44,475 nt of DNA, from positions 1 through 44,475 of the forward strand of contig JAIFNC010000057.1 in the NCBI GenBank assembly GCA_020047935.1. Reading direction: 5' to 3'. A program made the position numbers and the translations under genes. Within the stretch, counting starts at the first letter, position 1. Each line of letters starts with the position of its first letter. The stretch comes from Bacteroidota bacterium (GTDB lineage Bacteria; Bacteroidota; Bacteroidia; Bacteroidales; JAIFNC01). The notes beneath the pieces are model-generated. The model was not told the origin of the DNA. It searched no databases and was given only the letters and a program-made list of their open reading frames with translations. Below are positions 21,494 to 43,702 of this stretch, in pieces.

Positions 21494-21494
21494 A

Positions 21495-24131: not shown

Positions 24132-24338
24132 AATGAATAATTTTTTATTGTTTATATTATTTTCTATTATGATACGAAGATAATACTTTTATGTGATACG
24201 TACAAGTAAATTAACATATTTAACAATGTTAAAGTTCCAGGTGTGAGTTCATAACCTTCCCGTCGGATCACCTGTGGCTATTTAACATTTGACAGCATAA
24301 AAAAACCCACCGTTTTAAAGTGGGTTTTTTAACTGATA
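24132..24338 (-). promoter_or_regulatory. Intergenic regulatory cassette
   Basis: -7 complement 24175-24182 (TATCTTCG variant). Palindrome TTTAACAATGTTAAA 24219-24233. Arm ccaggtgtgagtt 24237-24249. Terminator aacccac/gtgggtt 24304-24326. Confidence 0.6.
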
Positions 24339-25187
24339 TTAAATATGCGCATCAACCATTGTGATTACAGTATCATCCGATACACTATCAATCAGTTCAG
24401 ATAGTTTTTTATTCCATTCATCATCTGATATTTCATTTGATGATACACCCCACCAACCCATGTCGCCTTTTTGAAACCACACGCCATCTTTAACAATAGA
24501 GTAGGCGGATATTGCACCATTTCTGAATTTATCAATAAATTCTTCGCGAGAACAATTAAAATCATCAGGTGAAACCCAATGTTTTTGAGCCTTTTTTAAT
24601 GCCGCATTTCTTGGTTGATTATGATAAAAATCACGTGTTTTGTCAATATCCACAATGCGTTCACGGATAACTTCCCATGATTCACTAATAGGTAGTTCAC
24701 CAATGATTGATATGATTTCATCATAACTCTCGCCAGCTTTAACACCAGCATCATTTCTCATACCTTCAAAATCAATATCTTTTTTCAATGCAACATCGCC
24801 ATGGCCAACTTCTGGCTGATTTTTGAAAACGCCAGATTCTCCCAGTTTTGGTATTACGCCAGGTTTTAATTTGAAAAATCCAGACCAACGACCACCAATG
24901 ATATACCAATCCCATTTACTGTCAGGATTATAAGTTGAAAACTCGGACCAATCACCGTTTTCATCTTTTCGATAATTATTACCATTCCAGTCGTTACCGT
25001 ACTTTTCATAACATTCTTCAAACGTGCCGACAAAGTTTTTATTCCTTTGGTAATAATCCAGAATACGGTTTTTCTCTTCTTCTGATACTTCACCCCGTTT
25101 ATATTCGGGAACGTCTATACTCTCATCATACTTTTCTAATTGTGTTTCCACATCATTGCCAATCACTAAAACCACAAAATGACTCAT
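24339..25187 (-). CDS. Hypothetical protein (282 aa)
   Basis: Track ORF between two cassettes. The YIIGGRWSGFF motif seems familiar from phage proteins, but I cannot name the family. Confidence 0.65.
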   Translation of the reverse strand: MSHFVVLVIGNDVETQLEKYDESIDVPEYKRGEVSEEEKNRILDYYQRNKNFVGTFEECYEKYGNDWNGNNYRKDENGDWSEFSTYNPDSKWDWYIIGGRWSGFFKLKPGVIPKLGESGVFKNQPEVGHGDVALKKDIDFEGMRNDAGVKAGESYDEIISIIGELPISESWEVIRERIVDIDKTRDFYHNQPRNAALKKAQKHWVSPDDFNCSREEFIDKFRNGAISAYSIVKDGVWFQKGDMGWWGVSSNEISDDEWNKKLSELIDSVSDDTVITMVDAHI

Positions 25188-25340
25188 AACTAATTAATTT
25201 TAATTGTTTATACTGTTTTAATTCAATACACAAAGATAATACTTTTATTTTGATTGTACAAGTAAATTAACATATTTAACAATGTTAAAAGGCATAACAT
25301 AAATTGGGTGAAGTAATACAACTTCCCCCAATTTTATATT
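25188..25340 (-). promoter_or_regulatory. Intergenic regulatory cassette (no long arms)
   Basis: -7 complement 25231-25238. Palindrome 25275-25289. Hairpin 25304-25331. Confidence 0.55.
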
Positions 25341-26189
25341 TTAACACATTTGATAAATTTCGTTGAATAATTGTCGTTCAATTACCCCAGTTTTACCAAC
25401 CATTTTATTCTGTTGATTTTTAATTTCATTCTTACTCGCTGAGTGGGTTGTATATCTTGTTGCTGAAGAAAATACGCCCCATGCGGTTTCAGATTTACTT
25501 TTCAATTCAATATCCATATCCATATCAAATCGTGCAATTTGATTTTGTTTACGAGTTGATAAATCATCAAGTGTCATTGCACGGTCGGTATTGTCCAATT
25601 GGAATAAAAGGTTTTTAACCAAATCAATCATAACTGGCGTCATCGGTGTTTCTGACATACGTTTAATTTTGTCAAAATCTTGTTTTTCCTCCAATAATAA
25701 TTTGTCAATGTTTCTAAGAATTTCATCAACACGAATTTGTAAACCTGCTGTGTGCCGTATTTTACTATCAACACTTCTGAAAGCTTTAAAAAACGTATTG
25801 GTACAGCTTATAGTAACACTTGAATTACCAAAGGCTAAGGATGTTGCACCATTGAATGAATTGATACCTGTGATAAATCCCTCAACGCGGTCATTACCCA
25901 ATTTTAAATCATCCGATTTCAATTGCATATAAACAAGATTTCCATCGTCAAATAACCCAGATTTGTGTAACTGTAAACCAGTACTTTGTGAAATTTGATA
26001 AAGTAAATCCATAAGTTGATGATTTTGAAACATTTCGTAACCATCACCCATAACAGATAACACACTATTTGTGTCATCACGTACAATAGCAACTTTATCT
26101 GGTATAATAATTCCAGATTTTGTTACCATTTCTTCTTTTCTAACTGTCCAGTCTAACTTTGTTGTTTCCAACATTTCTTGTGCTGTCAT
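25341..26189 (-). CDS. DUF932 / phage-plasmid TIGR03299-like protein
   Basis: LDWTVRKEEM...VAIVRDDTNSVLSVMGDGYEMFQNHQL matches my recollection of the DUF932 N-terminal pattern. Confidence 0.5.
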   Translation of the reverse strand: MTAQEMLETTKLDWTVRKEEMVTKSGIIIPDKVAIVRDDTNSVLSVMGDGYEMFQNHQLMDLLYQISQSTGLQLHKSGLFDDGNLVYMQLKSDDLKLGNDRVEGFITGINSFNGATSLAFGNSSVTISCTNTFFKAFRSVDSKIRHTAGLQIRVDEILRNIDKLLLEEKQDFDKIKRMSETPMTPVMIDLVKNLLFQLDNTDRAMTLDDLSTRKQNQIARFDMDMDIELKSKSETAWGVFSSATRYTTHSASKNEIKNQQNKMVGKTGVIERQLFNEIYQMC

Positions 26190-26401
26190 AATAAATAATT
26201 TATATGTTTATACTGTTTTAATTACAATACAAAGATAAGACATTTAATTTAATCTACAAAATTATTATAGTTAAATGTAGTTAAAATAATTGGTAGATAA
26301 AACTATTACGTGGACACATAATATAAACTCACACCTGGATTTTTAACAATCGTATATAATAAAAAAACCTAGTCATTTCTAACTAGGTTTTTTTATGCTT
26401 A
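26190..26401 (-). promoter_or_regulatory. Intergenic regulatory cassette (variant)
   Basis: -7 complement 26230-26237. Distal arm aaactcacacctgg 26325-26338. Terminator acctagt/actaggt 26367-26388. Confidence 0.5.
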
Positions 26402-27010
26402 TTACTCGTAAGTAATAGAGCCTGTTTTCACTTCAACTACATTATCAGTAACAACGATTTTACCCAAGTCAGATATATCCTCGCCCACCCAAGTGATTTC
26501 GCCGTTCAACATTACGCCCCATTTTGAAAAGAAGTTATTAATGTAGTACTTTAACCAAGCCACATATTCATAGAATTTTTCACCACCATCCCATTCTAGA
26601 ACGGCGCCATCATCACTGATAATCCATGCACACCATAAACCAGGTTGACATTCACCATCAGCAATGCGACGTTGCATTTCATTCCAACGGCCATTAAAAT
26701 CGTCAAATGATTTATCATCATACCCCAATTGTCCTGGAGGTGTATTGTAGTCGATTATAGAATCATCTTTACTTTGCCCTGACTGTCCGTCATCTTTAGC
26801 GAAATACTCGCCATCGCGTCCGTAAATTGCTTCTGGCGTGGTGTCAGTAGCAAAAGGATTGCCATGTTCACCTTTGTACAATTCCATCAATTTAGTAACA
26901 TCGCGTTTCATTCTGCGAGTGTTTGAAATAAGATTAATATAATCTCTTTCCTTTTCTGTTAAAGGTCTGCTGATTGTAATGGACCCATCGAAATTAGTGT
27001 GATACCCCAT
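26402..27010 (-). CDS. Hypothetical protein (202 aa)
   Basis: Track ORF between cassettes. Confidence 0.65.
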   Translation of the reverse strand: MGYHTNFDGSITISRPLTEKERDYINLISNTRRMKRDVTKLMELYKGEHGNPFATDTTPEAIYGRDGEYFAKDDGQSGQSKDDSIIDYNTPPGQLGYDDKSFDDFNGRWNEMQRRIADGECQPGLWCAWIISDDGAVLEWDGGEKFYEYVAWLKYYINNFFSKWGVMLNGEITWVGEDISDLGKIVVTDNVVEVKTGSITYE

Positions 27011-27263
27011 GATAATAATTTTTTTTAGTTGTTTTTATTCTGTTTTAATTATGATACAAAGATAATATATTGATATGACATGTACAAGTAAATTAACTTT
27101 TTTAACAATGTTAAAGATCCAGTTATGAGTTTTATGTACCCCGTCGCCAGGATTAACTAGAAGAAACTCACACCCAGAATTTTAACATATTGGTATTACA
27201 AAAAAAGAAACCCCCAACCATTTCTGACTGAGGATTTCCAGGCAACATATAAAACAACTAAAA
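27011..27263 (-). promoter_or_regulatory. Intergenic regulatory cassette
   Basis: -7 complement 27057-27064. Palindrome 27101-27115. Arms 27119-27133 and 27163-27177. Terminator about 27211-27233. Confidence 0.6.
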
Positions 27264-27854
27264 CTATTTTTCTTCTGGCTCGAGATCTGCAAGAAATTCT
27301 TCTACTGTCGGCAAGTTGTCAAGGTCATACGATTTCATTAATCGTATTGATGCATATTCGGTATCACCTTTAGGTTTATAAAACCGTTCAGTTTCTTCCA
27401 TTGGTGATTTATTAAACCCTTCATACACTTCAAAAGTGTTTTTATCCAGGTCAATAACATAACCATATTCACAAAATAAACTGTCATGTACAAAATCACG
27501 ACTGTCGTGTAACATGATATTTTGATCTTCTGATTCTGCAATTACATTCAAAATGTCGCTGCCGTGGCCACGGGTTAAGTATGGGTATTTTTCGTTATAC
27601 TGTTTGGTTTGTTTGTCATTCATCCAACCATTCTCACATCCGATTGATTTTAAAAATTCTGTAATACCTGTTTCTTCTTCTGGAGTAATAAAATGACACA
27701 CCTTCAATTTTTCCCTTAATTTTTCTAGAATTCCTTTGTGAAGAAATTCCAAAGTAACTACACCGTTGCCACTTGGGTAATGATCCCATTGTCCATACTG
27801 TGCAACGACTGGATTGCCACCTAAAATAACCATTGTTATGCCTCTTGTACCCAT
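27264..27854 (-). CDS. Hypothetical protein (196 aa)
   Basis: Track ORF between promoter elements. Confidence 0.65.
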   Translation of the reverse strand: MGTRGITMVILGGNPVVAQYGQWDHYPSGNGVVTLEFLHKGILEKLREKLKVCHFITPEEETGITEFLKSIGCENGWMNDKQTKQYNEKYPYLTRGHGSDILNVIAESEDQNIMLHDSRDFVHDSLFCEYGYVIDLDKNTFEVYEGFNKSPMEETERFYKPKGDTEYASIRLMKSYDLDNLPTVEEFLADLEPEEK

Positions 27855-27889
27855 GATAATAATTTTTTATTAGTTGTTTTTATATGATA

Positions 27890-27897
27890 CAAAGATA
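27890..27897 (-). promoter_or_regulatory. Stand-alone -7 box for 27264-27854
   Basis: Complement of TATCTTTG. The upstream gene ends only 20 nt away, so there are no arms and no terminator here. Confidence 0.45.
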
Positions 27898-27917
27898 ACA
27901 CATTTATTTGATACTAC

Positions 27918-28250
27918 CTAATTATTTCTAACTTTATCACATTTTTTAACAACCCAATGTGCTAATGCATAACTAGGTTTATAATCCATATTAATAACAC
28001 CCGCATGATTATGGTCGATCCAATCTTTAACCAGTTGATAATAATTTCTTTTATTAGTAACTTGAATTAAATTATAATGTTTCCATGCAATGTCAGGAAC
28101 GTTATTAATCATTGATAACATATTGAATGTATCACAAATGCCAACCCAATCAGGCCCAGTAAGTTTATTAAACGTTTCATTTTGTTTTAAAACCTCGCCA
28201 AAAGTGGCGAGGTCTTTAATGGGTTGTCCCAGTTTATTGTATTTTTCCAT
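27918..28250 (-). CDS. Hypothetical protein (110 aa from MEKYNKL)
   Basis: ATG 28250 follows the upstream stop at 28252 (TAATATG junction). The track start 28289 overlaps the upstream gene. Confidence 0.55.
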   Translation of the reverse strand: MEKYNKLGQPIKDLATFGEVLKQNETFNKLTGPDWVGICDTFNMLSMINNVPDIAWKHYNLIQVTNKRNYYQLVKDWIDHNHAGVINMDYKPSYALAHWVVKKCDKVRNN

Positions 28251-28251
28251 A

Positions 28252-29079
28252 TTAAAACACGTTATTAATGTCGTTATGCTTAATAACAAAGGGCGTTTCA
28301 GGAATAGTGTATTTATTATTTTTCACACTTGATGCCGTCATTTTGAATTTCAGTCCAACAATAACATTTTTTTTGTCGAGGTAACGTGCGTCATACAAAT
28401 CACCGTTAATAACTTCAAACCCGTGATACATTTTTGGTAACAGTTTTTCGAAAACCGCCGCCACTCTAAAACCATTTTTCAATGCTTGTTCACATAGTTT
28501 CCAATTGTAACCGTTATAACTGTATGTTATATCATAGTTGGTATACTTTTTTGAAAGTTCCAACCGATTAAAAACCTTTGTGTAATCATAAAATTGCACA
28601 TCTGGGAATAATTCTAAAATGTTTTTTCCGTTATGTACAAAATCCTCCATACTAATATCAGAAGTTGCATTAATTCTAACAGAAAATTCAAGTCCGTCCA
28701 GTTCCGCTTGTAACCTATGCATTTTAATTTCGGCAATCATCATTTGCATGAAGTAGGTTTTATTCACAAAAAACAATTGTGTTTTTTTAATGCGTGAATT
28801 TATTAATGTACTTTTACCTGCGCCAATTTCCATTCTGGCACGACCACTACCAAATAAACAATGCTCGCGACAATGTTTATCATTGACACATGCTTTAAAA
28901 CCGCTTAAATCAGAACTAGCCAAATAAATAGAATAGGTAGCAACACCATGTACATAACTATGCATAAACTTTGAACTGTGGGCTACATTTCCTAAGTATG
29001 CCACGCCCAACTCTTTTTTCGCTTTGGTTAAACCTTTGTAGGTTAATTTTGATAACTCATCTTTGTTTAATAATAACAT
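28252..29079 (-). CDS. Hypothetical protein with a Cys/His cluster (possibly GP88-like)
   Basis: CVNDKHCREHCLFGSGRA cluster. The family assignment is a weak recollection. Confidence 0.55.
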   Translation of the reverse strand: MLLLNKDELSKLTYKGLTKAKKELGVAYLGNVAHSSKFMHSYVHGVATYSIYLASSDLSGFKACVNDKHCREHCLFGSGRARMEIGAGKSTLINSRIKKTQLFFVNKTYFMQMMIAEIKMHRLQAELDGLEFSVRINATSDISMEDFVHNGKNILELFPDVQFYDYTKVFNRLELSKKYTNYDITYSYNGYNWKLCEQALKNGFRVAAVFEKLLPKMYHGFEVINGDLYDARYLDKKNVIVGLKFKMTASSVKNNKYTIPETPFVIKHNDINNVF

Positions 29080-29114
29080 AATAGTAAATTGTTTTTAGTT
29101 GTTTTTATATGGTA

Positions 29115-29155
29115 CAAAGATAATACTATTATATGAATTATACAATAGTATTATC
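29115..29155 (-). promoter_or_regulatory. Palindrome-type promoter
   Basis: -7 complement 29115-29122, embedded in a perfect 12-bp inverted repeat: GATAATACTATT (29119-29130) and AATAGTATTATC (29144-29155). Confidence 0.5.
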
Positions 29156-29166
29156 GTTAAAGTTAG

Positions 29167-29397
29167 TTAATCGTTTTTAATTCCATAATAAGTAGTTTCA
29201 ATAAATTTATCAACTTCATTTGAAAATTTAGTTACCTCATCTTTGTCATCGGCATCAGGCAAGTCAATGCCTATCATTTCACCAACATAGATTTCATTAA
29301 GATAAATTTCAATGCCGCCACATGATGAGTCTAAATCATAAAAAGATTTACAAGTAAATTCGTCTGTGCCTACTGGAATAATAATAGAATGTTTCAT
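29167..29397 (-). CDS. Hypothetical acidic protein (76 aa)
   Basis: Track ORF preceded by a cassette promoter. Confidence 0.5.
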   Translation of the reverse strand: MKHSIIIPVGTDEFTCKSFYDLDSSCGGIEIYLNEIYVGEMIGIDLPDADDKDEVTKFSNEVDKFIETTYYGIKND

Positions 29398-29685
29398 ACT
29401 GTTTTATTTTTAATTGTTTATACAAAGATAATACTTTTAAACTATTCTACAAAACATTTTATGTTAAAGATTGTTAAAGTGCAATGTTAAAGAGCCAGGT
29501 ATGATTTTTTACCTGCAGGATCGTCTTCAGATCGGATTAGTGTCCACGATCCTTCCTGCGAAAAACTCACAGCAGGCTTTTTAACAATTGGATATATAAG
29601 AAAACCCCAATCATTACTGACTGAGGTTTAATCCACGGCGATACGGTTCACTGTTCCCTTTTACGGTAGTATCTTTTGTGGCCTG
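29398..29685 (-). promoter_or_regulatory. Intergenic regulatory cassette (three direct TGTTAAAG sites)
   Basis: -7 complement 29423-29430. TGTTAAAG at 29462, 29472 and 29485. Arms 29495-29508 and 29563-29576. Terminator 29605-29626. Confidence 0.55.
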
Positions 29686-30231
29686 TTATTTTTCTACCAA
29701 ATCAAAAACCAATTCGGTGTGCTCATTACTGGGTTGGTCATCAGATACGGTAATCACTTCGCCAGCCCAAGAACCGACCAAACCATTTGCATCATCACCA
29801 TAATAATCACCACCGCCACGAGAGTTTGAGTTGCATGTTAGCAAAGGTAGCGGGTGTATACGGTAATCATAAGTATCCGTAGCATCGTTTGGGTTTACCC
29901 ATGTATCAGTAATTGGCACTTTGTCCAAATCAACAAACGATTTTTTGGTTTCGTTAATAAGGAATCGGAAATAATGATTTTCAGTTTCTTCTGGCTCGAT
30001 TTTATTAGACTCATAAGTTTCTGGGTTTACATCACCCTCTTCGGCATAATCGCCGCCCCAAGTTAATGATTGACCAAACCATGCGCCACCTTTGGCGATA
30101 AGTTTTTCTACTAAATTTACATAGTTGTTACCAATCCAACCTGTTTCCATTAATTTTGCTCCATTACCATATTCATGTGGATTTACACACTCATTGAGTT
30201 CTTTAACTCCTGCATTAAAATACTGTCCCAT
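29686..30231 (-). CDS. Hypothetical protein (181 aa)
   Basis: Track ORF between cassettes. Confidence 0.65.
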   Translation of the reverse strand: MGQYFNAGVKELNECVNPHEYGNGAKLMETGWIGNNYVNLVEKLIAKGGAWFGQSLTWGGDYAEEGDVNPETYESNKIEPEETENHYFRFLINETKKSFVDLDKVPITDTWVNPNDATDTYDYRIHPLPLLTCNSNSRGGGDYYGDDANGLVGSWAGEVITVSDDQPSNEHTELVFDLVEK

Positions 30232-30424
30232 AATAATAAGTTTTATTTGTTGTTTTTATATGATACAAAGATAATACTTTTATGTGATGCACACAAGCGT
30301 TTTAACACTTTTAACAATGTTAAAGTTCCAGGCGTGAGTTCATAACCTTCCCGTCGAAAATGTATCCCCCGAGCAAAAAAAACCCACCAGCGAAAAGCCA
30401 GTGGGTATTACACTACCAAATTAT
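30232..30424 (-). promoter_or_regulatory. Intergenic regulatory cassette
   Basis: -7 complement 30266-30273. Palindrome 30310-30324. Arm 30328-30340. Terminator about 30381-30406. The arm and centre are homologous to cassette 24132-24338. Confidence 0.6.
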
Positions 30425-30667
30425 TTATGTCGACCAGTTTAAAAAAAACTCTAATTGATTAGTCGTGTCAATAAAATAACCATCATCAAGATAATTATTT
30501 ATGTCTTCCTCGTCATACCCAACACAATTTTTTATGCTGTCAATAAAATACTTTTCAGATTTTAAAACTGCAGTATCTTTTTCGTTGGTGTCAGATATTT
30601 TAAATATGAATGATTTAACCTCATCAAGTGATCCAGCCTTAAATCGTATTACATTTATTACTTGCAT
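30425..30667 (-). CDS. Hypothetical protein (80 aa)
   Basis: Track ORF, 1 nt after the upstream stop. Confidence 0.5.
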   Translation of the reverse strand: MQVINVIRFKAGSLDEVKSFIFKISDTNEKDTAVLKSEKYFIDSIKNCVGYDEEDINNYLDDGYFIDTTNQLEFFLNWST

Positions 30668-30668
30668 A

Positions 30669-31511
30669 TTATTCTTTAGTTATTTTAGTTAATGTACATT
30701 CTAATCTGCGTTTTTGTAGTTTTTTAATATAAGTATTACCTTCTTTTTCTGTCAAAAACTGTTTACCAGGGTATCCGCCATACATAACATATTTGTACCC
30801 AGTTTTAGTTAATTTAACCAAATAACCACCATTAGATAATTTAATTTGAAATGATTCTTTAGTATCGTTAAGTAACTTAATTTTTTCATTACGTTGATTA
30901 TATCGTTTAACCGCATTAGTGAATTTATCACCTTTAAGTTTACTAGAAACATAATCAGTATTATAACCTAAACTTATTGTCGATTTTATATCAGTGTGTT
31001 TATAAAATTCGGTTATCTCATCAATTGCATTGAATAAATCATCAGTGGTAGTAACATTAATCATTTTTCTTTCGATATTACTATCATAACTAATATAACT
31101 ATTATTCACACAAACTGTAATACCTAAGTTAGTTAACTCTTCAACTGTTTTAGCACGTTTACACCCATTTTTGAAAAAATTCGTAAATTCTTTATAACTA
31201 CCAAAATTGCTCATAAACTTTAAACCGATATAACTGCCAAATTGGTCATCAGTATAATTGCTAGTGCCATCATCATTTAGATAACGTGTTTTGTTTTGGG
31301 TATTCATGTATTCCGCAACGTTAAGCATTTCGTTTAACGTGCCATAAAGTTTACCATTAGTCATATAGTAATACGGAAACCAATCACGCGAACGTCTTTC
31401 GCGTCCATTTACAAATACGGTGCAATTATTACTGCCAGATAATATCATTGGAACAAAATTGTCTTCATTCACTTTGATAAATTGTTTGTAATAAATAATT
31501 TCGTGGCTCAT
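30669..31511 (-). CDS. Hypothetical protein (280 aa)
   Basis: Track ORF. Confidence 0.65.
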   Translation of the reverse strand: MSHEIIYYKQFIKVNEDNFVPMILSGSNNCTVFVNGRERRSRDWFPYYYMTNGKLYGTLNEMLNVAEYMNTQNKTRYLNDDGTSNYTDDQFGSYIGLKFMSNFGSYKEFTNFFKNGCKRAKTVEELTNLGITVCVNNSYISYDSNIERKMINVTTTDDLFNAIDEITEFYKHTDIKSTISLGYNTDYVSSKLKGDKFTNAVKRYNQRNEKIKLLNDTKESFQIKLSNGGYLVKLTKTGYKYVMYGGYPGKQFLTEKEGNTYIKKLQKRRLECTLTKITKE

Positions 31512-31512
31512 A

Positions 31513-31677: not shown

Positions 31678-31681
31678 AACG

Positions 31682-33626: not shown

Positions 33627-33632
33627 TTTTTA

Positions 33633-35048: not shown

Positions 35049-35128
35049 ATCATTTAGTTATTTCGTAAAGTTCCTCTTCAACTTCCTTTAATAATTCCAT
35101 AAGTTCATTAACACCACTTTCAAAGATA

Positions 35129-36338: not shown

Positions 36339-36339
36339 A

Positions 36340-36501
36340 TTATTTGAATTTAACCCAGTCCTCTTCTGGTAAACCGAAAATTAATCTTTCGTTTGGTAAA
36401 TGATATAACAGTTCCTCAAGTACTGTATAATCATCTTGTTCAAAATCTTTTTTAAGTTGTTCAATGACTGCATCGACAAGCTCATGTTTTTCTCTTTCCA
36501 T
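36340..36501 (-). CDS. Hypothetical acidic protein (53 aa), my own ORF call
   Basis: MEREKHELVDAVIEQLKKDFEQDDY... TAATG overlap upstream. Confidence 0.4.
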   Translation of the reverse strand: MEREKHELVDAVIEQLKKDFEQDDYTVLEELLYHLPNERLIFGLPEEDWVKFK

Positions 36502-36602
36502 TATTTTGATATTTGATTAAGTATTTCAATCAATTCAACTAAAGAATAATGTACATTAATCTCAAGTGTTTTAAACGTTTTGTTTATAGTTTTTAGTGTC
36601 AT
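36501..36602 (-). CDS. Mini-ORF (33 aa), my own ORF call
   Basis: MTLKTINKTFKTLEINVHYSLVELIEILNQISK. First ORF after the structured leader. Confidence 0.3.
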   Translation of the reverse strand: MTLKTINKTFKTLEINVHYSLVELIEILNQISK

Positions 36603-36616
36603 AATAATTTTCTTAG

Positions 36617-36686
36617 AATCAGAATATGTGCTGTGTCCAACCGACCATCGGCTAACCTATTACACCATAACTTCCTTATTCTGATT
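36617..36686 (-). other. Structured 5' leader (10-bp perfect long-range stem)
   Basis: AATCAGAATA (36617-36626) and TATTCTGATT (36677-36686) enclose 50 nt that include CCGA..TCGG. The element sits between the -7 box (36695-36702) and the first ATG (36602). Confidence 0.35.
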
Positions 36687-36694
36687 TGTTGATA

Positions 36695-36746
36695 CAAAGA
36701 TAATACTTTTATTTGATATACACAAACATTTTATGTTAATGTTTGT
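36695..36746 (-). promoter_or_regulatory. Promoter with a 9-bp inverted repeat at the -33 position
   Basis: -7 complement 36695-36702. ACAAACATT (36722-36730) / AATGTTTGT (36738-36746). Confidence 0.45.
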
Positions 36747-36869
36747 TATTTTATTAATGTACCTTTTTTAAACAATTTAGTATAAGAGGTTACATTCGGA
36801 TAAGGAATTTCATCCTTTGTCCAAGTATCATTGTTTACCTTTGTAAAATCAATGTTTCTACTGCCATAA

Positions 36870-37091
36870 TTACCTCCATTTTAATGATATTAATTCAATA
36901 ATACCACACAATACATCTTCTAATACCGCTTCAGTAACAGTTGCTGTACTCCAACCATCAGTAAAATCTTGTATCTCATAACGATTTTCTTTGATTTTAC
37001 AAACACATCTGGTTGATAATCCTAATCTAACATCTTTATCAATTCCCTCCTCAAGTGAACTAATAATTTTTTTTGCATCTTCTCTTGTCAT
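36870..37091 (-). CDS. Hypothetical protein (73 aa)
   Basis: Track ORF preceded by a cassette promoter. Confidence 0.5.
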   Translation of the reverse strand: MTREDAKKIISSLEEGIDKDVRLGLSTRCVCKIKENRYEIQDFTDGWSTATVTEAVLEDVLCGIIELISLKWR

Positions 37092-37329
37092 AATATCATT
37101 CTTTTAATTGTTTATACAAAGATAATACTATTATATCACATATACAAGTGTTTTAACATTTTTAACATTGTTAATTATCCAGTTATGAGTTTTTCCTGAA
37201 GACGGATACTTCAGATCGGAATGGTGTCCACGATCCTTCCCTGAACTAAAACTCGCACCCAGCGTTTTAACATATCACGCCATAAAAAAACCCAATCATT
37301 TCTGACTGGGTTTTCAATTTGTTATAATT
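37092..37329 (-). promoter_or_regulatory. Intergenic regulatory cassette
   Basis: -7 complement 37117-37124. Palindrome 37161-37175. Arms 37179-37192 and 37249-37263. Terminator 37291-37310. The centre is homologous to cassette 29398-29685. Confidence 0.6.
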
Positions 37330-38109
37330 TTAGTTTACGGATTTCATAAACGATGGTGAGTTACCGTATAAAGGAGAATGTCCATCCCATTTTTCAATAA
37401 ACATTTGTTGTATGATTAATGGTGTCAATGTTTGTTGTTTAATTTTATTGGCTTCAGCCTCACCTCGGGCTTTGGTTACAGCAATCTCGGCATCGGCTCT
37501 TGTGCTACGAAGTTCATTCTCTTTTTGTTGTGCAAGTTGTACCGCGTTATTCTTAGCTTCAATACCTTTAGTCACACTGGCGGGATATCTCAAACCGAAT
37601 GTTAGAGGTCCAATTTCAAAACCCTCCTTTTCCAATTCTTTAGTTAATATAACCGTAACTTTTTTATCAAATTCAACACGTTTGGATAAAATATCATCAG
37701 TCGTATATTCGTTAAACACATTTTTAAACACATCCTTAACATAAGTTAATAAAATAGTTTGTCTAAGTTCCTCAATATCCTTTCGATACTTTATGAAAAT
37801 TTCGGGACTTTTACCTGCTTTAACACGAAAATTTAACATCGGGTCAACATAGAATACACTACCATCTTTGGCATTCACACTAAATGCTTCATAATCGGCT
37901 GTCTGATAAAATATAGGAAATTCCTCAACATCCTCGGTCCACGGATTATACCACACACGGCCAGTAACTAATGATGCCATTTGAACACCCTTATCAGAAC
38001 CGTACTGTTTCACTAAAATACCCTCGTACCCACCACCAATACGTTTTGTACATGAAGTAAAACTCATAGTTGCTACAGCAACCAATAAAAATAAAATCAC
38101 GTTTTTCAT
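37330..38109 (-). CDS. SPFH/Band-7 domain lipoprotein
   Basis: Signal peptide and lipobox MKNVILFLLVAVATMSFTSC. Then GYEGILVKQYG...TGRVWYNPWTE, typical of the SPFH N-terminus, and a coiled-coil-like C-terminal region. Confidence 0.6.
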   Translation of the reverse strand: MKNVILFLLVAVATMSFTSCTKRIGGGYEGILVKQYGSDKGVQMASLVTGRVWYNPWTEDVEEFPIFYQTADYEAFSVNAKDGSVFYVDPMLNFRVKAGKSPEIFIKYRKDIEELRQTILLTYVKDVFKNVFNEYTTDDILSKRVEFDKKVTVILTKELEKEGFEIGPLTFGLRYPASVTKGIEAKNNAVQLAQQKENELRSTRADAEIAVTKARGEAEANKIKQQTLTPLIIQQMFIEKWDGHSPLYGNSPSFMKSVN

Positions 38110-38318
38110 TTTGTTTTAAAAATTTTTATTATATAATTGATTAAAAAATAATTCCCAATAATAAAACCACTGATACCAATAACACCCACTAATACCGCAA
38201 TATCTGATGCCGTACTAACTAGCGATAACACACCATTGATATATAAAAATTCCATCAATAGTAATACGGGCAAAACTGCAATTAATATGATAATTTTATG
38301 TAAAATACTTTTTTCCAT
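38106..38318 (-). CDS. Small 2-TM membrane protein (70 aa from MEKSIL)
   Basis: ATGA overlap with the SPFH gene. The track start 38345 reads into the -7 box at 38343-38350. Confidence 0.5.
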   Translation of the reverse strand: MEKSILHKIIILIAVLPVLLLMEFLYINGVLSLVSTASDIAVLVGVIGISGFIIGNYFLINYIIKIFKTK

Positions 38319-38342
38319 TTTTTTATGTTTTAATTTATGATA

Positions 38343-38350
38343 CAAAGATA
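38343..38350 (-). promoter_or_regulatory. -7 box for the membrane/SPFH pair
   Basis: Complement of TATCTTTG. Confidence 0.45.
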
Positions 38351-38384
38351 ATACATTTATTTGATAAATACAAATGTTATTGTG

Positions 38385-38711
38385 TTAAACAATTTTACCC
38401 TCCAAAATTAATAATTTTTTATATTCACGAAACTGCACTAATTTACGTGCCTTTGATTGAATTTTGTAAAATTCTTCCTCTGTCATTTCGTTAAACTCAA
38501 GTAAATCATTATCTATTGTTTTAAAAAGTTCAATACCTTTAACCACATCATCACGTTTCTCTTTAACATACAATTCTAGTTCCTCATGTGTCCCCTCTTT
38601 AATTACATCAACATTATTAAATGTACCTGAATAACCACCGCCAAAACCCTCAGAACCATAACTTGGGCTGACTTGTATCTTTTCTACTTTAATTCCTACT
38701 AAGATTGACAT
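38385..38711 (-). CDS. Hypothetical protein (108 aa from MSILVGI)
   Basis: The track start 38789 reads through the promoter (-7 complement 38738-38745). ATG 38711 is preferred. Confidence 0.55.
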   Translation of the reverse strand: MSILVGIKVEKIQVSPSYGSEGFGGGYSGTFNNVDVIKEGTHEELELYVKEKRDDVVKGIELFKTIDNDLLEFNEMTEEEFYKIQSKARKLVQFREYKKLLILEGKIV

Positions 38712-38950
38712 AATACTATTGTTTTTAATTGTTTCTACAAAGATAATACTATTATATTGAATAAACAAGCATATTAACATTTTTAACATTGTTAAAGTTC
38801 CAGGTGTGAGTTTCTTCTAGCTACCCTCTTCAGATCCAGTCAGAAAATTCCGAGAACCTTCCAGGTATAAAACTCACAACCAGCGTTTTAACATATCAAG
38901 AAATAAAAAAAGGGGAAATAAATCCCCTCTTTTTAAATCCACCTGATAGG
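38712..38950 (-). promoter_or_regulatory. Intergenic regulatory cassette (56-nt centre family)
   Basis: -7 complement 38738-38745. Palindrome 38782-38796. Arms 38800-38813 and 38870-38884. Terminator 38912-38927. Confidence 0.65.
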
Positions 38951-39307
38951 TTATTTACATTTATCCGAAATAAAATCGGTATAAACCTCATCCATTGACA
39001 TAAACAGGCTGTTTGGCCGTCTGCGGTCGCCAGTTTTCAATTCGTAATATCCAGCCCCTTTTACTCCATCGGGGAAATAACGATACGATGTGAGCGGGTA
39101 CGAAACGTTTGGATGCTTTTCGTTAAATTCGGTTACAGACATTTTGACGGGTAACGACATAAGGTAATTTTTATCACCGATTTTTGTCATCACTAAACCA
39201 GATGCGGCACTATTCAAGTATTTTTCTTCGTATTGACGAACTGCGCGATAAGCTGCCGAAGATGAACGAAATGAACGAGGGAATTTTTTTACTTCTTTTG
39301 TTTCCAT
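38951..39307 (-). CDS. Hypothetical protein (118 aa)
   Basis: Track ORF between cassettes. Confidence 0.6.
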   Translation of the reverse strand: METKEVKKFPRSFRSSSAAYRAVRQYEEKYLNSAASGLVMTKIGDKNYLMSLPVKMSVTEFNEKHPNVSYPLTSYRYFPDGVKGAGYYELKTGDRRRPNSLFMSMDEVYTDFISDKCK

Positions 39308-39724
39308 AATTGTAAATTTTATTTATTGTTTTAATTCTGATACAAAGATAATACATTAATACCAATTGCACAAGCATTTTAACACTTTTAACATTGTTAA
39401 TGAGCCTGTTATGAGTTTGTAATACCTTCCAGTATTCTTCCAGTATTCTTCCAGTATTCTTCCAGTATTCTTCCAGTATTCTTCCAGTATTCTTCCAGTA
39501 TTCCTACTAAACTCACAGACAGCGTTTTAACATATCGTAATACAGAAAACCCCGCGTTTCACAACGCAGGGAACTCTTAATTTAACAATTTAACTATGGA
39601 CAAACCGTTCAATGAAACTCACACAAATATATACAAGTACCAATTTCCTAATTCAACGATTACCGCAATTTTTAAACTTTCGTTTCAAATTGTCTTACAT
39701 AATATCCAAAGGAGAAAATTCGGA
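39308..39724 (-). promoter_or_regulatory. Intergenic regulatory cassette whose centre is an 11-bp tandem array
   Basis: -7 complement 39343-39350. Palindrome 39387-39401. Arms 39408-39421 and 39512-39526. Terminator 39553-39574. Confidence 0.6.
39430..39506. repeat. Perfect tandem repeat, 7 x 11 bp (TTCCAGTATTC)
   Basis: Units start at 39430, 39441, 39452, 39463, 39474, 39485 and 39496, each checked base by base. Confidence 0.95.
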
Positions 39725-40327
39725 CTAACGTAGCCCTATCCCGAACGCTGATTCAAGTTCTATTTTTAATTTTTCTATAATATCTTTGTCAATGTTGTCT
39801 GACATACCATTTTTCCAAATGTTATCGCCATAAAAACCCCAGCAACTATCTGTCATTTCATCATCAACATAAACTTCAAATCCGTACACATCACCAGTAA
39901 GATATTGGTCGTATGTTTCAACTTCGGCGTTTAAATTTTCAACCGCCTTGTCATACCATTTTTTTGTACAGTATTTAATGTTGAAAGTTTTTTTCATCAT
40001 TTCCTTTGTAATGATTGCGAACCCAACTTGCCCGCTATCCCATTTACAACTGAAAGAACTTGTTGAAATTGTAATGCCCGAGTGGTCATATAAATATAAG
40101 GGCATAATCACAATCGGTTTTTCATTTCGGATAATATCCGCCTTCATTTCCTCCCAATTATTATTATCATGGAAATTATAATCATGTTTATCGCCCAAAT
40201 TATATCTTGAATGAAAACATATCATTTTAACTATGTTGCCATCGGTATAATCTAAATCGCGAGGACTTTGTGCATTTTCGTCTTGAATAATTTCTAAACG
40301 AATGTTGTCTTTTTTAATTGTTGTCAT
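39725..40327 (-). CDS. Hypothetical protein (200 aa)
   Basis: Track ORF between cassettes. Carries an LYLYDHSGITIS motif; family not recalled. Confidence 0.65.
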   Translation of the reverse strand: MTTIKKDNIRLEIIQDENAQSPRDLDYTDGNIVKMICFHSRYNLGDKHDYNFHDNNNWEEMKADIIRNEKPIVIMPLYLYDHSGITISTSSFSCKWDSGQVGFAIITKEMMKKTFNIKYCTKKWYDKAVENLNAEVETYDQYLTGDVYGFEVYVDDEMTDSCWGFYGDNIWKNGMSDNIDKDIIEKLKIELESAFGIGLR

Positions 40328-40586
40328 AATAGTGTTGTTTTAAATTGTTATACAAAGATAATACATTTACTTATACTACACAAGTGTTTTAACACTTTTA
40401 ACATTGTTAATGACCCAGTTATGAGTTTCTTCTAGCTACCCTCTTCAGATCCAGTCAGAAAATTCCGAGACCCTTCCAGGCATAAAACTCACAAACAGCG
40501 TTTTAACATATCGTAATACAGAAAAACCCACGTTTCACAACGTAGGTAATTCTTTGTCTGAACTATATCAAAAACCAAATATAAAT
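40328..40586 (-). promoter_or_regulatory. Intergenic regulatory cassette (56-nt centre family)
   Basis: -7 complement 40353-40360. Palindrome 40397-40411. Arms 40415-40428 and 40485-40499. Terminator 40527-40546. Confidence 0.65.
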
Positions 40587-40946
40587 TTAACCGTTTATTT
40601 TATTAACAAGTATTGACAAATTTCCGAGCAATTCCACATAAGTTTTACCACTTGTGAAAATTTTGTTATACTCATCACATATCCAATTTTTACAACGATA
40701 ACCACGTCTTTTTGCTGTTGTATGTATGATACAATAAATGAAGTCCCTTTCAGTATTCGGATACATTTGTCCCGAAATGAAAATCTTTCGTTCACCTAAT
40801 ATACGTACTAAATCTTTACTGTTACCCTCTCTGAAAAGTCTTTCTGCCTCTTTTTTAATACCATGTATAGTACCGATATTTGTAACATCAAAAGTGAAAT
40901 CACTTAGAAGTACTTTAATTTCCTTAATAAATTCTACTTGATTCAT
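40587..40946 (-). CDS. Hypothetical protein (119 aa from MNQVEF)
   Basis: The track start 40985 reads through the promoter (-7 complement 40972-40979). Confidence 0.55.
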   Translation of the reverse strand: MNQVEFIKEIKVLLSDFTFDVTNIGTIHGIKKEAERLFREGNSKDLVRILGERKIFISGQMYPNTERDFIYCIIHTTAKRRGYRCKNWICDEYNKIFTSGKTYVELLGNLSILVNKING

Positions 40947-41204
40947 ATTGCCTATTTTTAAATTGTTTACACAAAGATAATACATTTATATGTACTACAC
41001 AAGCATTTTAACATTTTTAACATTGTTAATGATCCAGTTATGAGTTTCTTCTGACGCGAGCCTGGTGAATCAAGAATCTTCCCAGGCAAATTCTAGCAGA
41101 AACTCACAAACAGCGTTTTAACACTTTGTAATACCATATAAAAAACCCCCGACTGTTAAGCCGAGGGTTGAAAAGACTGTACCGCTCCAATGTGTACTAC
41201 ATCT
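40947..41204 (-). promoter_or_regulatory. Intergenic regulatory cassette
   Basis: -7 complement 40972-40979. Palindrome 41016-41030. Arms 41034-41047 and 41100-41114. Terminator about 41146-41168. Confidence 0.6.
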
Positions 41205-41570
41205 TTATTTCCAGCCGTATTCCTTTTTAACAGTTGCCTCGTAATTGTCAGTCTTTTCTACATAACTGTCAATTCGGTCTGTTAACTCATCACAGTAAAC
41301 CATTTCTAATGTTTCTTTAATCTCACATTTATAATCTAACAAATACACGGTATATGTATCGTTATAGTCTAATGTGATTAACACATAACCTTTGTGCTTA
41401 AATCCTGATACCTTGAACAATAAACCTTTACCCTGAAAATTAACATAATCTCTTGCTCCCCAGCTCATTAAAATGCTAACACCACCAGCCCGAAGCTGTA
41501 ACAAAGTTTCTTGTGCATTGAGAACGTCTTTCAATAACGACTCAATTTTTTTTACATTTTCGCTTGTCAT
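41205..41570 (-). CDS. Hypothetical protein (121 aa)
   Basis: Track ORF between cassettes. Confidence 0.6.
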   Translation of the reverse strand: MTSENVKKIESLLKDVLNAQETLLQLRAGGVSILMSWGARDYVNFQGKGLLFKVSGFKHKGYVLITLDYNDTYTVYLLDYKCEIKETLEMVYCDELTDRIDSYVEKTDNYEATVKKEYGWK

Positions 41571-41846
41571 AATACTATTGTTTTAAATTGTTATACAAAG
41601 ATAATACTTTTATATCACCCGCACAAGCATTTTAACACTTTTAACATTGTTAATGACCCAGTTATGAGTTTCTTCTAGCGACCCTCTTCAGATCCAGTCA
41701 GAAAATTCCGAGACCCTTCCAGGCATAAAACTCACAACCAGCATTTTAACATTTCATATAACCACACAAAAAAGGGGCGAACCTAAATCCACCCCTCAAA
41801 ACACTTTGAAACTAAATGAAAAGTAACAAAGAGCAAACAACTTATA
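41571..41846 (-). promoter_or_regulatory. Intergenic regulatory cassette (56-nt centre family)
   Basis: -7 complement 41596-41603. Palindrome 41640-41654. Arms 41658-41671 and 41728-41742. Terminator 41774-41795. 41591-41697 matches 34481-34587 at 106/107 positions. Confidence 0.65.
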
Positions 41847-42161
41847 TTAAAGTACCTTAACTATTTCTTTTAATTTATTATGAAAATCGGTGAAATCTTT
41901 TAGACTTTCACTAATAGTGAAATTATCTTTATATTCTTTACTTTGTCTGTGTAAATCAATTTGCTCATCAACATCAAACTCATTAACATATTTTTTAAAT
42001 TCTACTTTTTTAAACGGTAATAAACCTATAATCATGTCCACACCGCCAGCTGTCCACATTTCCAACTCTGAACATTGTTCATTGTCTTGCTCAAACAAAA
42101 ATACCTTAAATCCTACTTCTTCAAAGAATTTAACTAATTCATCACTTGACATTTTTGACAT
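41847..42161 (-). CDS. Hypothetical protein (104 aa)
   Basis: Track ORF between cassettes. Confidence 0.6.
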   Translation of the reverse strand: MSKMSSDELVKFFEEVGFKVFLFEQDNEQCSELEMWTAGGVDMIIGLLPFKKVEFKKYVNEFDVDEQIDLHRQSKEYKDNFTISESLKDFTDFHNKLKEIVKVL

Positions 42162-42428
42162 AATAATATAGTTTTAAATTGTTATACAAAGATAATACTA
42201 TTATATCAATTGCACAAGCATTTAATGTTAAAAAAATGTAATACCAAATGTTAATGCGCCTTCTGTGAGTTTCTTCTGGTTGCCACACGGGGTGAGCTGA
42301 CGAAGCCTGTCGTCTCCCAGCTCAGGACGACTGCTGAACTCACAACCAGCATTTTAACACTTTGTAATACCACATAAAAAAAGAGTGGTACTAATTCCAC
42401 TCTTCCCTAAATAATATATAACACGTTT
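42162..42428 (-). promoter_or_regulatory. Intergenic regulatory cassette with a GC-rich hairpin centre
   Basis: -7 complement 42188-42195. Arms 42264-42273 and 42337-42351. Internal hairpin 42295-42324. Terminator 42383-42404. Confidence 0.55.
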
Positions 42429-42632
42429 TTATTCCCTTTTCTTTTTTTCGTAAAACAGTTGAACGTAATGTATGGAAACCACAGTTATAACCCAATAAAG
42501 TATTATACTAACATCTTTTCTCATTCCATCATATTGACAATACAACATTAAATAAGCCATCAACATTATGAATAAAATCATAGGTATTAAACACCCCAAA
42601 AATAACAATATGTTAAATCTTCTCTTTTCCAT
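42429..42632 (-). CDS. Small 2-TM membrane protein (67 aa)
   Basis: Two hydrophobic helices and a basic C-terminus. Confidence 0.5.
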   Translation of the reverse strand: MEKRRFNILLFLGCLIPMILFIMLMAYLMLYCQYDGMRKDVSIILYWVITVVSIHYVQLFYEKKKRE

Positions 42633-42635
42633 AAC

Positions 42636-42830
42636 TTAATCAAATAACGTGTGTACCTTACTAATACCAATGATTGTTAATAAAACACCCATAATTATCA
42701 ATATAATACCCGATAAACCTTGTAATGCCGTGGCATTATATAACCCAATAAATACATTGTAGGTATGAAATGATATGTTAATCACCAAAATTAAACATAC
42801 GATAACTGTTAAAATCTTTTTTGAATCCAT
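42636..42830 (-). CDS. Small 2-TM membrane protein (64 aa)
   Basis: Two hydrophobic helices. Confidence 0.5.
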   Translation of the reverse strand: MDSKKILTVIVCLILVINISFHTYNVFIGLYNATALQGLSGIILIIMGVLLTIIGISKVHTLFD

Positions 42831-43065
42831 AATGATATAATTTTTAATTGTTTCGACAAAGATACGGCAATAAGGTTATACTGCAAAATTTATTATGTTA
42901 AAGTTTGTAATACCAATTGTTAATGCGCCTTCTGTGAGTTCTACATGAAACCACAAACATGAAACATTTTTTTATCTCGACAAACTCACACACGGGCCTT
43001 AACATATCAACATACGAAAAACCCCCGACTGTTAAGACGAGGGTCAATTCCATATTCATATCATC
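42831..43065 (-). promoter_or_regulatory. Intergenic regulatory cassette (CGACAAAGATACGG subfamily)
   Basis: -7 complement 42857-42864. Arms 42932-42940 and 42982-42996. Terminator 43022-43043. Its first ~140 nt are near-identical to 43343-43480. Confidence 0.6.
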
Positions 43066-43329
43066 CTACTTTCGGTAAAACTCAATATATGTTAAATCCT
43101 TTGTATATTTTACTCTCAATTCCGAACCCAAACCCCAATAAACACCTCCTCTGTCATAAGCCCCGTTCATCGGTACTCGACAATCAAAGACTGTCTTCTG
43201 GTCACATTTACATATACGATTATTACGACCTCTAGTAATCGTATGAGGAAATTCACCCACGTTATTACGACCCATTGGCGCTCCGTACTTTGTTGATACA
43301 TTTGTGATAATTTTGTCTAGCGTTCTCAT
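43066..43329 (-). CDS. Hypothetical protein (87 aa from MRTLDK)
   Basis: The track start 43368 reads through the promoter (-7 complement 43355-43362). Confidence 0.55.
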   Translation of the reverse strand: MRTLDKIITNVSTKYGAPMGRNNVGEFPHTITRGRNNRICKCDQKTVFDCRVPMNGAYDRGGVYWGLGSELRVKYTKDLTYIEFYRK

Positions 43330-43702
43330 ATTGCATATTTTTAAATTGTTTCGACAAAGATACGGCAATAAGGTTATACTGCAAAATTTATTATGTTAAA
43401 GTTTGTGATGCCAATTGTTAATGAGCCTTCTGTGAGTTCTACATGAAACCACAAACATGAAACATTTTTTTATCACCCCCAAATGGTTTAACACTTTTTA
43501 TCTCGACAAACTCACACACGGGCCCTTAACATTGTTAAAATATGCTAACGCAAATGCTAATTTAACTTTCCCGAAAATGCTAAAGTTTATTAATAATATG
43601 TAATTTATCGGTTTACCTATTGTAGATATGAAAAATACATACTATCTTTGTCGAAACAATTCCAAAAACAAGTAATAATAACAATTTAACAATTTTGTGA
43701 AA
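43330..43702. promoter_or_regulatory. Divergent promoter / strand-switch region
   Basis: Minus-strand -7 complement 43355-43362. Arms 43432-43440 and 43508-43522. TTAACATTGTTAA 43526-43538. AATGCTAA three times (43542-43583). Plus-strand TATCTTTG 43643-43650. Confidence 0.6.

Follow-up and report, generated by a model that had tools for sequence, protein, structure and literature searches.

In T4-type phages, the elements known as promoter/stem-loops (PeSLs) consist of intergenic stem-loop terminators joined to strong host-type promoters, A/T-rich upstream; they cluster among ORFans in hyperplastic regions, follow a lineage-specific consensus and mediate indels and replacements, recombination between them yields excised mini-circles, and their authors speculated on a stem-loop-binding recombination protein (Arbiol et al. 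2010, PMC2839356; Comeau et al. 2014, PMC4122927). The sequence analysed here, referred to as the window, is the whole stretch of 44,475 nucleotides of contig JAIFNC010000057.1, from the Bacteroidota bacterium assembly GCA_020047935.1. On its minus strand, at positions 20628..43540, lies an array of small genes separated by cassettes, each composed of a terminator, an inverted repeat and a promoter. The interpretation we favour, and regard as reasonably probable, is that these cassettes are PeSL-like modules, acting both as transcription boundaries and in recombination, built on a Bacteroidota promoter, and that they are the functional counterpart of the T4-type PeSLs. A search of the literature brought up no description of PeSL-like elements in Bacteroidota phages or anywhere else beyond phages of the T4 type.

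Other described systems share part of this organization. Phage T4 contains dozens of early promoters, used by the host polymerase and provided with extended conserved upstream (UP-like) regions. The Correia elements of Neisseria (NEMIS/CREE) and the enterobacterial ERIC and BIME are chromosomal repeats that spread by transposition, duplicating their targets, and have no fixed association with junctions between terminator and promoter. In arrays of integron attC sites and of the Vibrio VCR, an imperfect inverted repeat of 60-140 nt comes after each small gene; its ends are conserved and its centre varies.

Minus is the gene strand of the window between ~21 and 43.7 kb, where ~29 promoters are found within 23 kb of small genes. 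Read along this strand, the stop codon of the upstream gene is followed by an intrinsic terminator of variable sequence; then by the 5' arm of the inverted repeat (TGTTAAAAyGCTGGTTGTGAGTTT), an interior of 31-90 nt and the 3' arm (AAACTCAyAaCTGGnnCwTTAACA); then, in this order, by W, TGTTAAAA, r, TGTTAAAA, y and GCTTGT, which holds the -33 TTG; and finally by a 20-nt variable spacer, the extended -7 element TATTATCTTTGTAT, an A-rich leader of ~20 nt, lacking a Shine-Dalgarno sequence, and the ATG. The two arms may pair in a stem of 7 bp, a 3x3 internal loop and 14 bp, and the energies predicted for the corresponding RNA hairpins range from -24 to -41 kcal/mol.

As the preliminary description of this DNA had supposed, the box is a -7 element; with its -33 TTG it matches the published Bacteroidota promoter consensus, -33 TTTG and -7 TAnnTTTG (PMC2483708, PMC6847099), and it is from this match that promoter function is inferred. 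The -7 element of Flavobacterium johnsoniae has its G at -5 (PMC6847099); following this rule, the transcription start site (TSS) was set 5 nt after the box G. On this numbering a 15-bp palindrome extends from -63 to -49 and the 3' arm covers -80 to -57, with the first bases of the TGTTAA repeats at -55 and -46. The cassette of box 41596 is given as a worked example, from the upstream gene to the promoter:

41772..41797, minus strand: intrinsic terminator of the upstream gene, GC-rich hairpin and T-run
41728..41751, minus strand: 5' arm, TGTTAAAATGCTGGTTGTGAGTTT
41672..41727, minus strand: variable interior, family A (~48% GC), with CTGGAAGG and GATCTGAAG
41648..41671, minus strand: 3' arm, AAACTCATAACTGGGTCATTAACA, -80 to -57
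41640..41654, minus strand: palindrome, formed by the end of the 3' arm (TTAACA), W and the distal TGTTAAA
41632..41637, minus strand: proximal TGTTAA repeat, -46 to -41, 9 nt past the distal one
41624..41626, minus strand: -33 TTG, within GCTTGT
41596..41603, minus strand: -7 element TATCTTTG, of the TAnnTTTG type; predicted TSS near 41590, ATG at 41570

The counts of the main motifs are far in excess of expectation. The plus-strand octamer CAAAGATA, corresponding to TATCTTTG on the gene strand, was found 37 times as an exact match, both strands counted, compared with 2.92 +/- 1.61 in shuffled sequences; the copies at 6299 and 35121 fall inside open reading frames (ORFs), were taken as coding sequence and are probably not promoters. 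All of the -7 boxes listed in the preliminary description were found, with one start moved from 42188 to 42187, and with the boxes at 24175 (CGAAGATA) and 19147 (CAAAGGTA) being one-mismatch variants. Terminator-like sites, defined as a hairpin followed by a T-run, number 33, 7.2 being expected, and the strong ones on the minus strand are located 10-24 nt upstream of the hairpin 5' arm, so that the proposed repeated layout of terminator, stem-loop, promoter and short ORF is borne out. The palindromic 15-mer TTTAACAWTGTTAAW gives 34 strand matches, i.e. 17 sites, where 0.41 are expected: the 14 already listed were all recovered, and three more were found at 20644, 21262 and 43525. An automated scan reproduced the spacing originally noticed by eye: for 14 of the 17 palindromes the distance to a box is exactly 44 nt, an offset reached by fewer than three in every one of 10000 random placements. 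The three additional ones, none of which lies at 44 nt, are found on the 5'-arm side of a hairpin, either 97 or 121 nt from a box or with no box.

The cassettes amount to about 20, as had been estimated, and fall into two classes: 14 class-A cassettes, which contain the palindrome, and six class-B cassettes (boxes at 21141, 29423, 35953, 42187, 42857 and 43355), in which direct TTAACA repeats replace it. The distance from the hairpin 3' arm to the box is 74 nt in 13 class-A copies and 83-84 nt in class B. In addition, ~9 plainer promoters of the same -33/-7 type are present, and the promoters found elsewhere in the window (9137, 9269, 12704, 19147) are devoid of hairpin arms. Besides the worked example, the following cassettes and isolated arms were recorded:

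27057..27187, minus strand: complete class-A, from box to 5' arm
31985..32117, minus strand: complete class-A, with the interior inverted relative to copies 27131, 24249 and 30340
33931..34086, minus strand: complete class-A, interior family A
34486..34651, minus strand: complete class-A
37117..37272, minus strand: complete class-A, interior family B
38738..38893, minus strand: complete class-A, interior family A
39343..39532, minus strand: complete class-A, the interior being a perfect 11-nt tandem repeat of 7.1 copies (39426-39503)
40353..40508, minus strand: complete class-A, interior family A
40972..41123, minus strand: complete class-A
24175..24250, minus strand: class-A, 3' arm and palindrome, 5' arm truncated
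25231..25289, minus strand: class-A promoter, palindrome present, no hairpin arms
30266..30341, minus strand: class-A, 3' arm only
33319..33394, minus strand: class-A, 3' arm only
21141..21276, minus strand: class-B, with direct TTAACA repeats and a short-loop inverted repeat; the 3' arm lies 84 nt from the box and the palindrome (21262-21276) on the 5'-arm side
29423..29586, minus strand: complete class-B, three direct TTTAACA repeats
35953..36094, minus strand: complete class-B
42187..42359, minus strand: complete class-B, contains GGTATTACA
42857..43005, minus strand: complete class-B, 96% identical over 140 nt to cassette 43355
43355..43539, minus strand: first cassette of the array, class-B, palindrome on the 5'-arm side at 43525-43539
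26330..26353, minus strand: orphan 5' arm, with a terminator upstream of it and a plain-type promoter (26230) next
20632..20658, minus strand: orphan 5' arm with an adjoining palindrome at 20644-20658

A third promoter class, represented by boxes 29115 and 33028, features a 7-bp inverted repeat, TACTATT-N13-AATAGTA, between the -33 and -7 elements, and is conserved in a related locus (L193, introduced below) at 5844 and 13260; by its sequence, this repeat looks like an operator overlapping the promoter. A leader structure considered after promoter 36695 was discarded as not significant (z = -1.7).

Alignment of the 14 class-A copies revealed that the block from -80 to beyond the box is free of any indel. 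Every pair of motifs contained in it therefore has a fixed spacing, and the 44-nt distance is not an independent signal. Within the alignment the arms, the TGTTAAA repeats, the -33 and the extended -7 elements are near-invariant, and the expected third TGTTAA, followed by a GCTTGT/ACTTGT element containing the -33 TTG, is in place, whereas the -33/-7 spacer and the hairpin interior are variable; conserved motifs flanked by variable segments point to constraint on the motifs, or to their homogenization, rather than to recent duplication of whole segments. Self-comparison of the window gave repeats of 95-215 bp, 73-96% identical, which are confined to intergenic DNA and whose flanking genes are unrelated. 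The palindrome itself is composite: its left half, TTTAACA, is the outer end of the hairpin 3' arm, and its right half is the distal TGTTAAA of the promoter, which is repeated directly with a 9-nt period (Tandem Repeats Finder gives TTTTAACAT x 2.7). It arises because the 3' arm abuts the promoter, and is a junction within one conserved block, peculiar to this lineage, not clearly a separate regulator site.

The window has ~30% GC and derives from metagenomes (source samples ERZ27248459, SRR931349 and JGI 3300033508), identical fragments being present in ENA, Logan and JGI samples; the three further copies compared were all 100% identical, and no sequence variation was found among them. No match was obtained among 50,697 phage records with 40 kb of the window as megablast query, exact cassette patterns returned unrelated single matches or none in IMG/VR, and an IMG/VR protein-based scan with DUF932 gave no match. 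The pattern palindrome-N35-39-TATCTTTG retrieved 25 single matches in GTDB genomes and 35 in JGI metagenomes, and no cassette array. After these exact-pattern scans, related loci (L193, L199, L197 and L201) were reached through homologues of the DUF932 protein encoded in the window: L193 comes from a 251-kb contig and its DUF932 is 88% identical to that of the window, while L199 comes from a 148-kb contig and its DUF932 is 52% identical.

L193 and L199 use the same promoter, TATTATCTTTGTAT, as the window, with TGTTAAAAATGTTAAAACGCTTGTG in some copies. TTAAC/GTTAA pentamers occur between -68 and -35 in 29 of 36 promoter-like sites of the window, in 15 of 15 in L193 and in 16 of 17 in L199, compared with ~4-6 at random positions, whereas the palindrome was found in none of the 15 and 17 promoters of the two relatives. 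Their inverted repeat is also different, GTCAAACCGCAAT-loop-ATTGCGGTTTGAC, located at a variable distance from the box, and this L193-type hairpin, GTCAAACCGCAAT, is not present above chance in the window. The more distant L197 has a third type of arm, TTGGTTGGCG...CGCCAACCAA, with an A-tract as upstream element; the architecture is the same, although neither TTAAC-type motifs nor the palindrome were found in its 26 promoters. In L201, an 84%-identity relative, the palindrome adjoins the terminator, ~160 nt from the box. Three related lineages thus share an architecture built with different hairpin arms, and what is conserved across the relatives is the architecture and the TTAAC repeats, not the dyad and its phasing.

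The relatives also document extensive rearrangement. L193 contains homologues of 17 window genes, thoroughly reordered and 32-88% identical at the amino-acid level. L193 and L199 are collinear, mostly with 75-95% nucleotide identity, and differ by a 4.1-kb block of seven genes, by a 1.3-kb block and by replacement of the DUF932 allele inside conserved flanks (L193 10001-10852 versus L199 10001-10843). Homology between the two resumes inside the promoter block: for the 4.1-kb block, it does so 42 nt upstream of a -7 box, and both flanking cassettes match the single cassette of the other genome. The notion that cassettes delimit gene gain and loss is in agreement with these indels and allele replacements, which end in cassettes. 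A strain whose DUF932 is 99% identical to that of the window has a different gene on either side.

In a PeSL-like cassette of this kind, the intrinsic terminator would stop the upstream transcript, and a strong host sigma-A-type promoter (-33 TTG, 20-nt spacer, TATTATCTTTGTAT) would restart transcription ~20 nt before the next small gene. The TGTTAAA repeats at -55 and -46 would serve the promoter as an upstream element, where contact would be made either by RNA polymerase or by a factor recognising TTAAC; that one or the other, such a factor or an UP-like contact, is involved upstream of -33 appears likely, and a sequence-specific factor recognising TTAAC(A) there is possible. Between terminator and promoter is the lineage-specific inverted repeat, with its 3' arm abutting the promoter; it might bind a protein, or give read-through RNA an extra hairpin, and what it does is the least certain part of this scheme. 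The 95-215 bp of 73-96% identical sequence lying between unrelated genes would insulate neighbours transcriptionally and, at the same time, would offer a substrate for homologous recombination, by which gene cassettes may be shuffled, deleted and replaced.

The resemblance to PeSLs, noted in the preliminary description, holds when set against the PeSL papers and the relatives, with their shuffled gene order and their indels ending in cassettes. Both systems appear to combine a stem-loop terminator with a strong host-sigma promoter, A/T-rich upstream, repeated many times among small ORFans of a plastic region: here the putative early promoter is represented by TTG-N20-TAnnTTTG preceded by the TGTTAAA repeats, the predicted terminator by the terminator-like hairpins, with a second long hairpin in addition, and the concentration among small ORFan genes is evident. 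In both the stem-loop and promoter consensus is lineage-specific, and in both the cassettes are tied to indels, replacements and changes of gene order between relatives. In contrast to PeSLs, the promoter is of the Bacteroidota -33/-7 type instead of sigma-70 -35/-10, with no Shine-Dalgarno sequence; a separate long inverted repeat, with 24-nt arms and a 31-90-nt interior, stands between terminator and promoter; and TGTTAA/TTAACA repeats take the place of a generic A/T-rich stretch. Conservation reaching far upstream of the -35/-33 element is shared with the T4 early promoters, which are likewise host-polymerase promoters, but the consensus and the host polymerase differ, and the window element is a G/C-bearing hexamer of variable orientation. 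Like Correia, ERIC and BIME sequences, the inverted repeats are intergenic, ~100-150 bp long, with 20-30-nt inverted ends, lie near promoters or provide them, and can fold in mRNA; unlike them, they lack target duplications and are fixed at terminator-promoter junctions.

The inverted repeat was evaluated as a possible RNA element. The sense-strand RNA is predicted to fold more stably than the antisense in 14 of 15 hairpins (e.g. -32.6 vs -12.4 kcal/mol). Non-Watson-Crick pairs in the 14-bp inner stem are nearly all G-U, not A-C, and over both arms 35 G-U are found versus 15 A-C, 13 of the latter at one internal-loop position. Two arm variants differ by one compensatory pair and three wobble-preserving changes. 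Interiors are GC-rich, ~48% versus ~30% in the genome, and in some copies the interior or the loop is found in inverted orientation. In the hairpin families of the relatives there is no strand asymmetry (6 G-U vs 4 A-C) and arms are mismatched. No match to the inverted repeat was found in Rfam at E <= 1, and no target-site duplications were found at its borders, where the flanks ...GATA / ATGT... differ. A 12-codon micro-ORF considered in interior family A was rejected, being not conserved, with the ATG lost in copy 38812.

Several points weigh against the PeSL-like interpretation. The promoters, the terminators and the early timing are predicted from sequence alone. The evidence for recombination comes from the relatives and not from variants of the window, and T4-type status is hinted solely by an ORF resembling the N-terminus of Gp23 and by a helicase with 29% identity, both described below. 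PeSL stem-loops are terminators themselves, and the additional long inverted repeat found here is not required by the explanation. As for a putative role of that repeat in RNA, arms do not covary, 90.1% of cells being paired versus 90.4% when the 3' arms are shuffled among copies, and the excess of G-U on the sense strand, which traces back to about three inherited positions and is not seen in the relatives, has been given reduced weight.

Among the alternatives, the one which best withstands the comparison is that a dedicated DNA-binding protein of the phage or the host switches the small genes on or off together, using the palindrome and the TGTTAA/TTAACA repeats as its operators or activator sites. 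We consider it unlikely, although the recurrence of the pentamers at -68 to -35 in window, L193 and L199 would fit such a protein, as would the specific G/C kept within an A/T-rich motif, which suggests base-specific reading, and the difference of ~10 nt in arm-to-box distance between class A and class B. A further element in its favour comes from four Bacteroidota metagenome-assembled genome (MAG) contigs (L140, L142, L152 and L157, L142 and L157 being labelled Sphingobacteriaceae), where a similar palindrome, ATTAACAATGTTAAT, lies at the same distance from TATCTTTG as in the phage cassettes; these matches appear to represent one orthologous bacterial promoter, upstream of a fatty-acid-desaturase-like gene, which may, judging by its motifs, be a lead to a host factor reading this dyad. 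The preliminary description went further, deducing from the fixed phasing a dimeric regulator bound to the palindrome, and this part of it was not supported: conservation of the entire indel-free block accounts for the invariant 44 nt, the palindrome is composite, and the relatives with the same promoter lack the palindromic arrangement (0/15, 0/17). Palindromes also occur away from promoters, at 20644, 21262, 43525 and in L201, 97-160 nt from a box or with no box, and the repeats, found in either orientation and with spacings of 9, 10 or 13 nt, fit one fixed dimer site poorly. L197 keeps the same architecture with none of these motifs (0/26), and the sole candidate regulator in the window is the helix-turn-helix (HTH) of an IS607-type recombinase. 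Of the features by which a dimeric operator would be recognized, neither a dyad conserved in relatives nor an independently constrained position was found.

A second alternative gives the inverted repeat a role chiefly at the RNA level: transcripts reading through it would fold there into a long hairpin, which could serve as an attenuator or reserve terminator, be processed by an RNase III-type enzyme or stabilise the 3' end, and the promoter would merely adjoin it. The stabler sense-strand fold, the excess of G-U over A-C, the compensatory and wobble-preserving changes between arm variants and the GC-rich interiors all speak for this possibility. It is nevertheless decidedly improbable, given the missing covariation, the wobble positions inherited from about three events, the symmetric and mismatched hairpins of the relatives, the copies with inverted interior or loop, the existence of orphan arms and the lack of an Rfam match; moreover, the repeat lies downstream of an intrinsic terminator, so that little RNA is expected to reach it. 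The compensatory changes and the curated family match by which a structured RNA would be recognized were not obtained.

Two further proposals concern DNA mobility. The inverted repeats might be insertions resembling miniature inverted-repeat transposable elements (MITEs), placed between terminator and promoter, or attC-like sites of a dedicated recombinase, and this alternative recalls some of their properties: the conserved arms of 24-32 nt resemble terminal inverted repeats around a variable 31-90-nt interior, the interior is found in both orientations, lineage-specific arms are expected if they co-evolve with a protein, and the PeSL authors themselves speculated on a stem-loop-binding recombination protein. 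The size and regularity of the array, with a small gene followed by an imperfect inverted repeat having conserved ends and a variable centre, are also reminiscent of attC/VCR arrays. We hold it to be very unlikely. A MITE origin is unlikely because target-site duplications are missing and the elements occur solely where a terminator meets a promoter, the spacing between 3' arm and promoter being fixed. The attC consensus is RYYYAAC...GTTRRRY, and the outer boxes GTTAAA...TTTAAC of the window have the reverse polarity; an attC-like site is unlikely because of this reversal, because cassettes bring their own promoters (and terminators), and because no integrase was found in the window, nor any tyrosine recombinase or matching transposase, the only recombinase there being the IS607-type serine one, 20 kb away; in addition, no extrahelical-base pattern was seen. 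The sole mappable breakpoint in the relatives falls in the promoter block, which fits plain homologous recombination. Equally slight is the probability that the arms are sites at which a phage recombinase or structure-specific nuclease actively moves promoter-gene-terminator cassettes; if true, this would amount to integron-like acquisition of accessory genes in phages, each cassette with its own expression signals.

Some short, GC-rich motifs (CTGAAG, CTGGAAGG, CGACGG and GGATC) are strongly enriched in the hairpin interiors and turn up again in all three lineages, as seen in intergenic regions of L193, L197 and L201. In 809 nt of interiors (e.g. 34007-34062, 37193-37248 and 29509-29562 of the window), CTGAAG occurs 9 times versus 0.36 expected, CTGGAAG 12 times versus 0.25, and GGATC 9 times versus 0.4, the expectation being derived from the window-wide count of each motif and the copies being partly shared by descent. 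The 11-nt unit tandemly repeated at 39426-39503, CTTCCAGTATT on the plus strand, contains CTGGAAG and fills one hairpin interior. CTGAAG is the Eco57I/AcuI site, and an Eco57I-type methylase domain is encoded in the window. Another motif, GGTATTACA, is found 11 times in the window versus 0.64 expected, mostly in or beside cassettes and not in interiors, at positions including 27192, 30404, 39418, 41127, 42237, 42363 and 42906; the same sequence forms the loop of the different hairpin family of L193 and L199.

Array genes are small and mostly fall in no Pfam family, and the remainder belong to phage accessory families (DUF932, GP88, DUF1281_C and SPFH). The best explanation is that the window is part of a large uncultivated phage with a Bacteroidota host, and that the cassettes sit in its accessory, hyperplastic-type region. 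No tRNA was found by a scan of the window. A 109-aa ORF at 4910-5239 (minus strand) matches the first 40 residues of the T4 major capsid protein Gp23 (PF07068), and a 511-aa helicase at 15400-16935 (minus strand) has its nearest matches, at 29% identity, in T4-like cyanophages; from these similarities, the Gp23-like ORF and the helicase hint at a phage within the wider T4 superfamily.

The remaining loci of the window include a CRISPR-Cas locus at 9301-14977 (plus strand), which encodes, in order, a protein resembling Cas7fv (its match to NF040577, with E 1e-29, falls short of the family cut-off), a 298-aa ORF without family match, Cas6, the array and a Cas3 HD-helicase. The array (12052-12612) is made of nine 36-nt repeats, CTGTATCTTATCCAATTCCGCAAGGGAATCACAAC, with 30-31-nt spacers; no cas1 or cas2 was found in the window, and promoters of the -33/-7 type are located at 9269 and 12704. 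By gene content this locus looks like an interference-only system, type I-Fv (I-F2)-like. Spacer 1 (TTTACAACATTGTTATATATTACCGTGATTA, 12087-12117) matches 14 of 15 positions of the palindrome region at 24216-24230 and 25272-25286, which is not significant (E 0.18), and comparison of the spacers with all fetched loci gave chance matches only; the array could target cassette-like sequences of competing phages. Other genes, all on the minus strand, code for an MzaB-like/HATPase_c_3 ATPase, defence-like (1882-3435), the IS607-type transposase, with a MerR-type HTH and a serine-resolvase domain (3529-4188), a Thg1-like tRNA-His guanylyltransferase (5713-6489), the N6-adenine methylase with the Eco57I-type domain (17624-19111) and a C5-cytosine methylase (21788-22708). 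A fragment at the left edge, ~1-770, resembles by eye only a TnpB zinc ribbon.

If the PeSL-like nature of the cassettes is confirmed, gene shuffling of the PeSL type would not be peculiar to T4-type phages of Proteobacteria and cyanobacteria, but would be a general design, rebuilt in Bacteroidota on promoters of a very different grammar. The window would also provide ~30 aligned natural promoters with an extended upstream element, in a phylum whose promoter architecture is poorly defined, and this set would include TGTTAA/TTAACA as a candidate UP-like or factor-binding element. Something new is most likely to be found in the additional inverted repeat, which is lineage-specific: the architecture is the same in the three lineages examined, the arm sequences are different.

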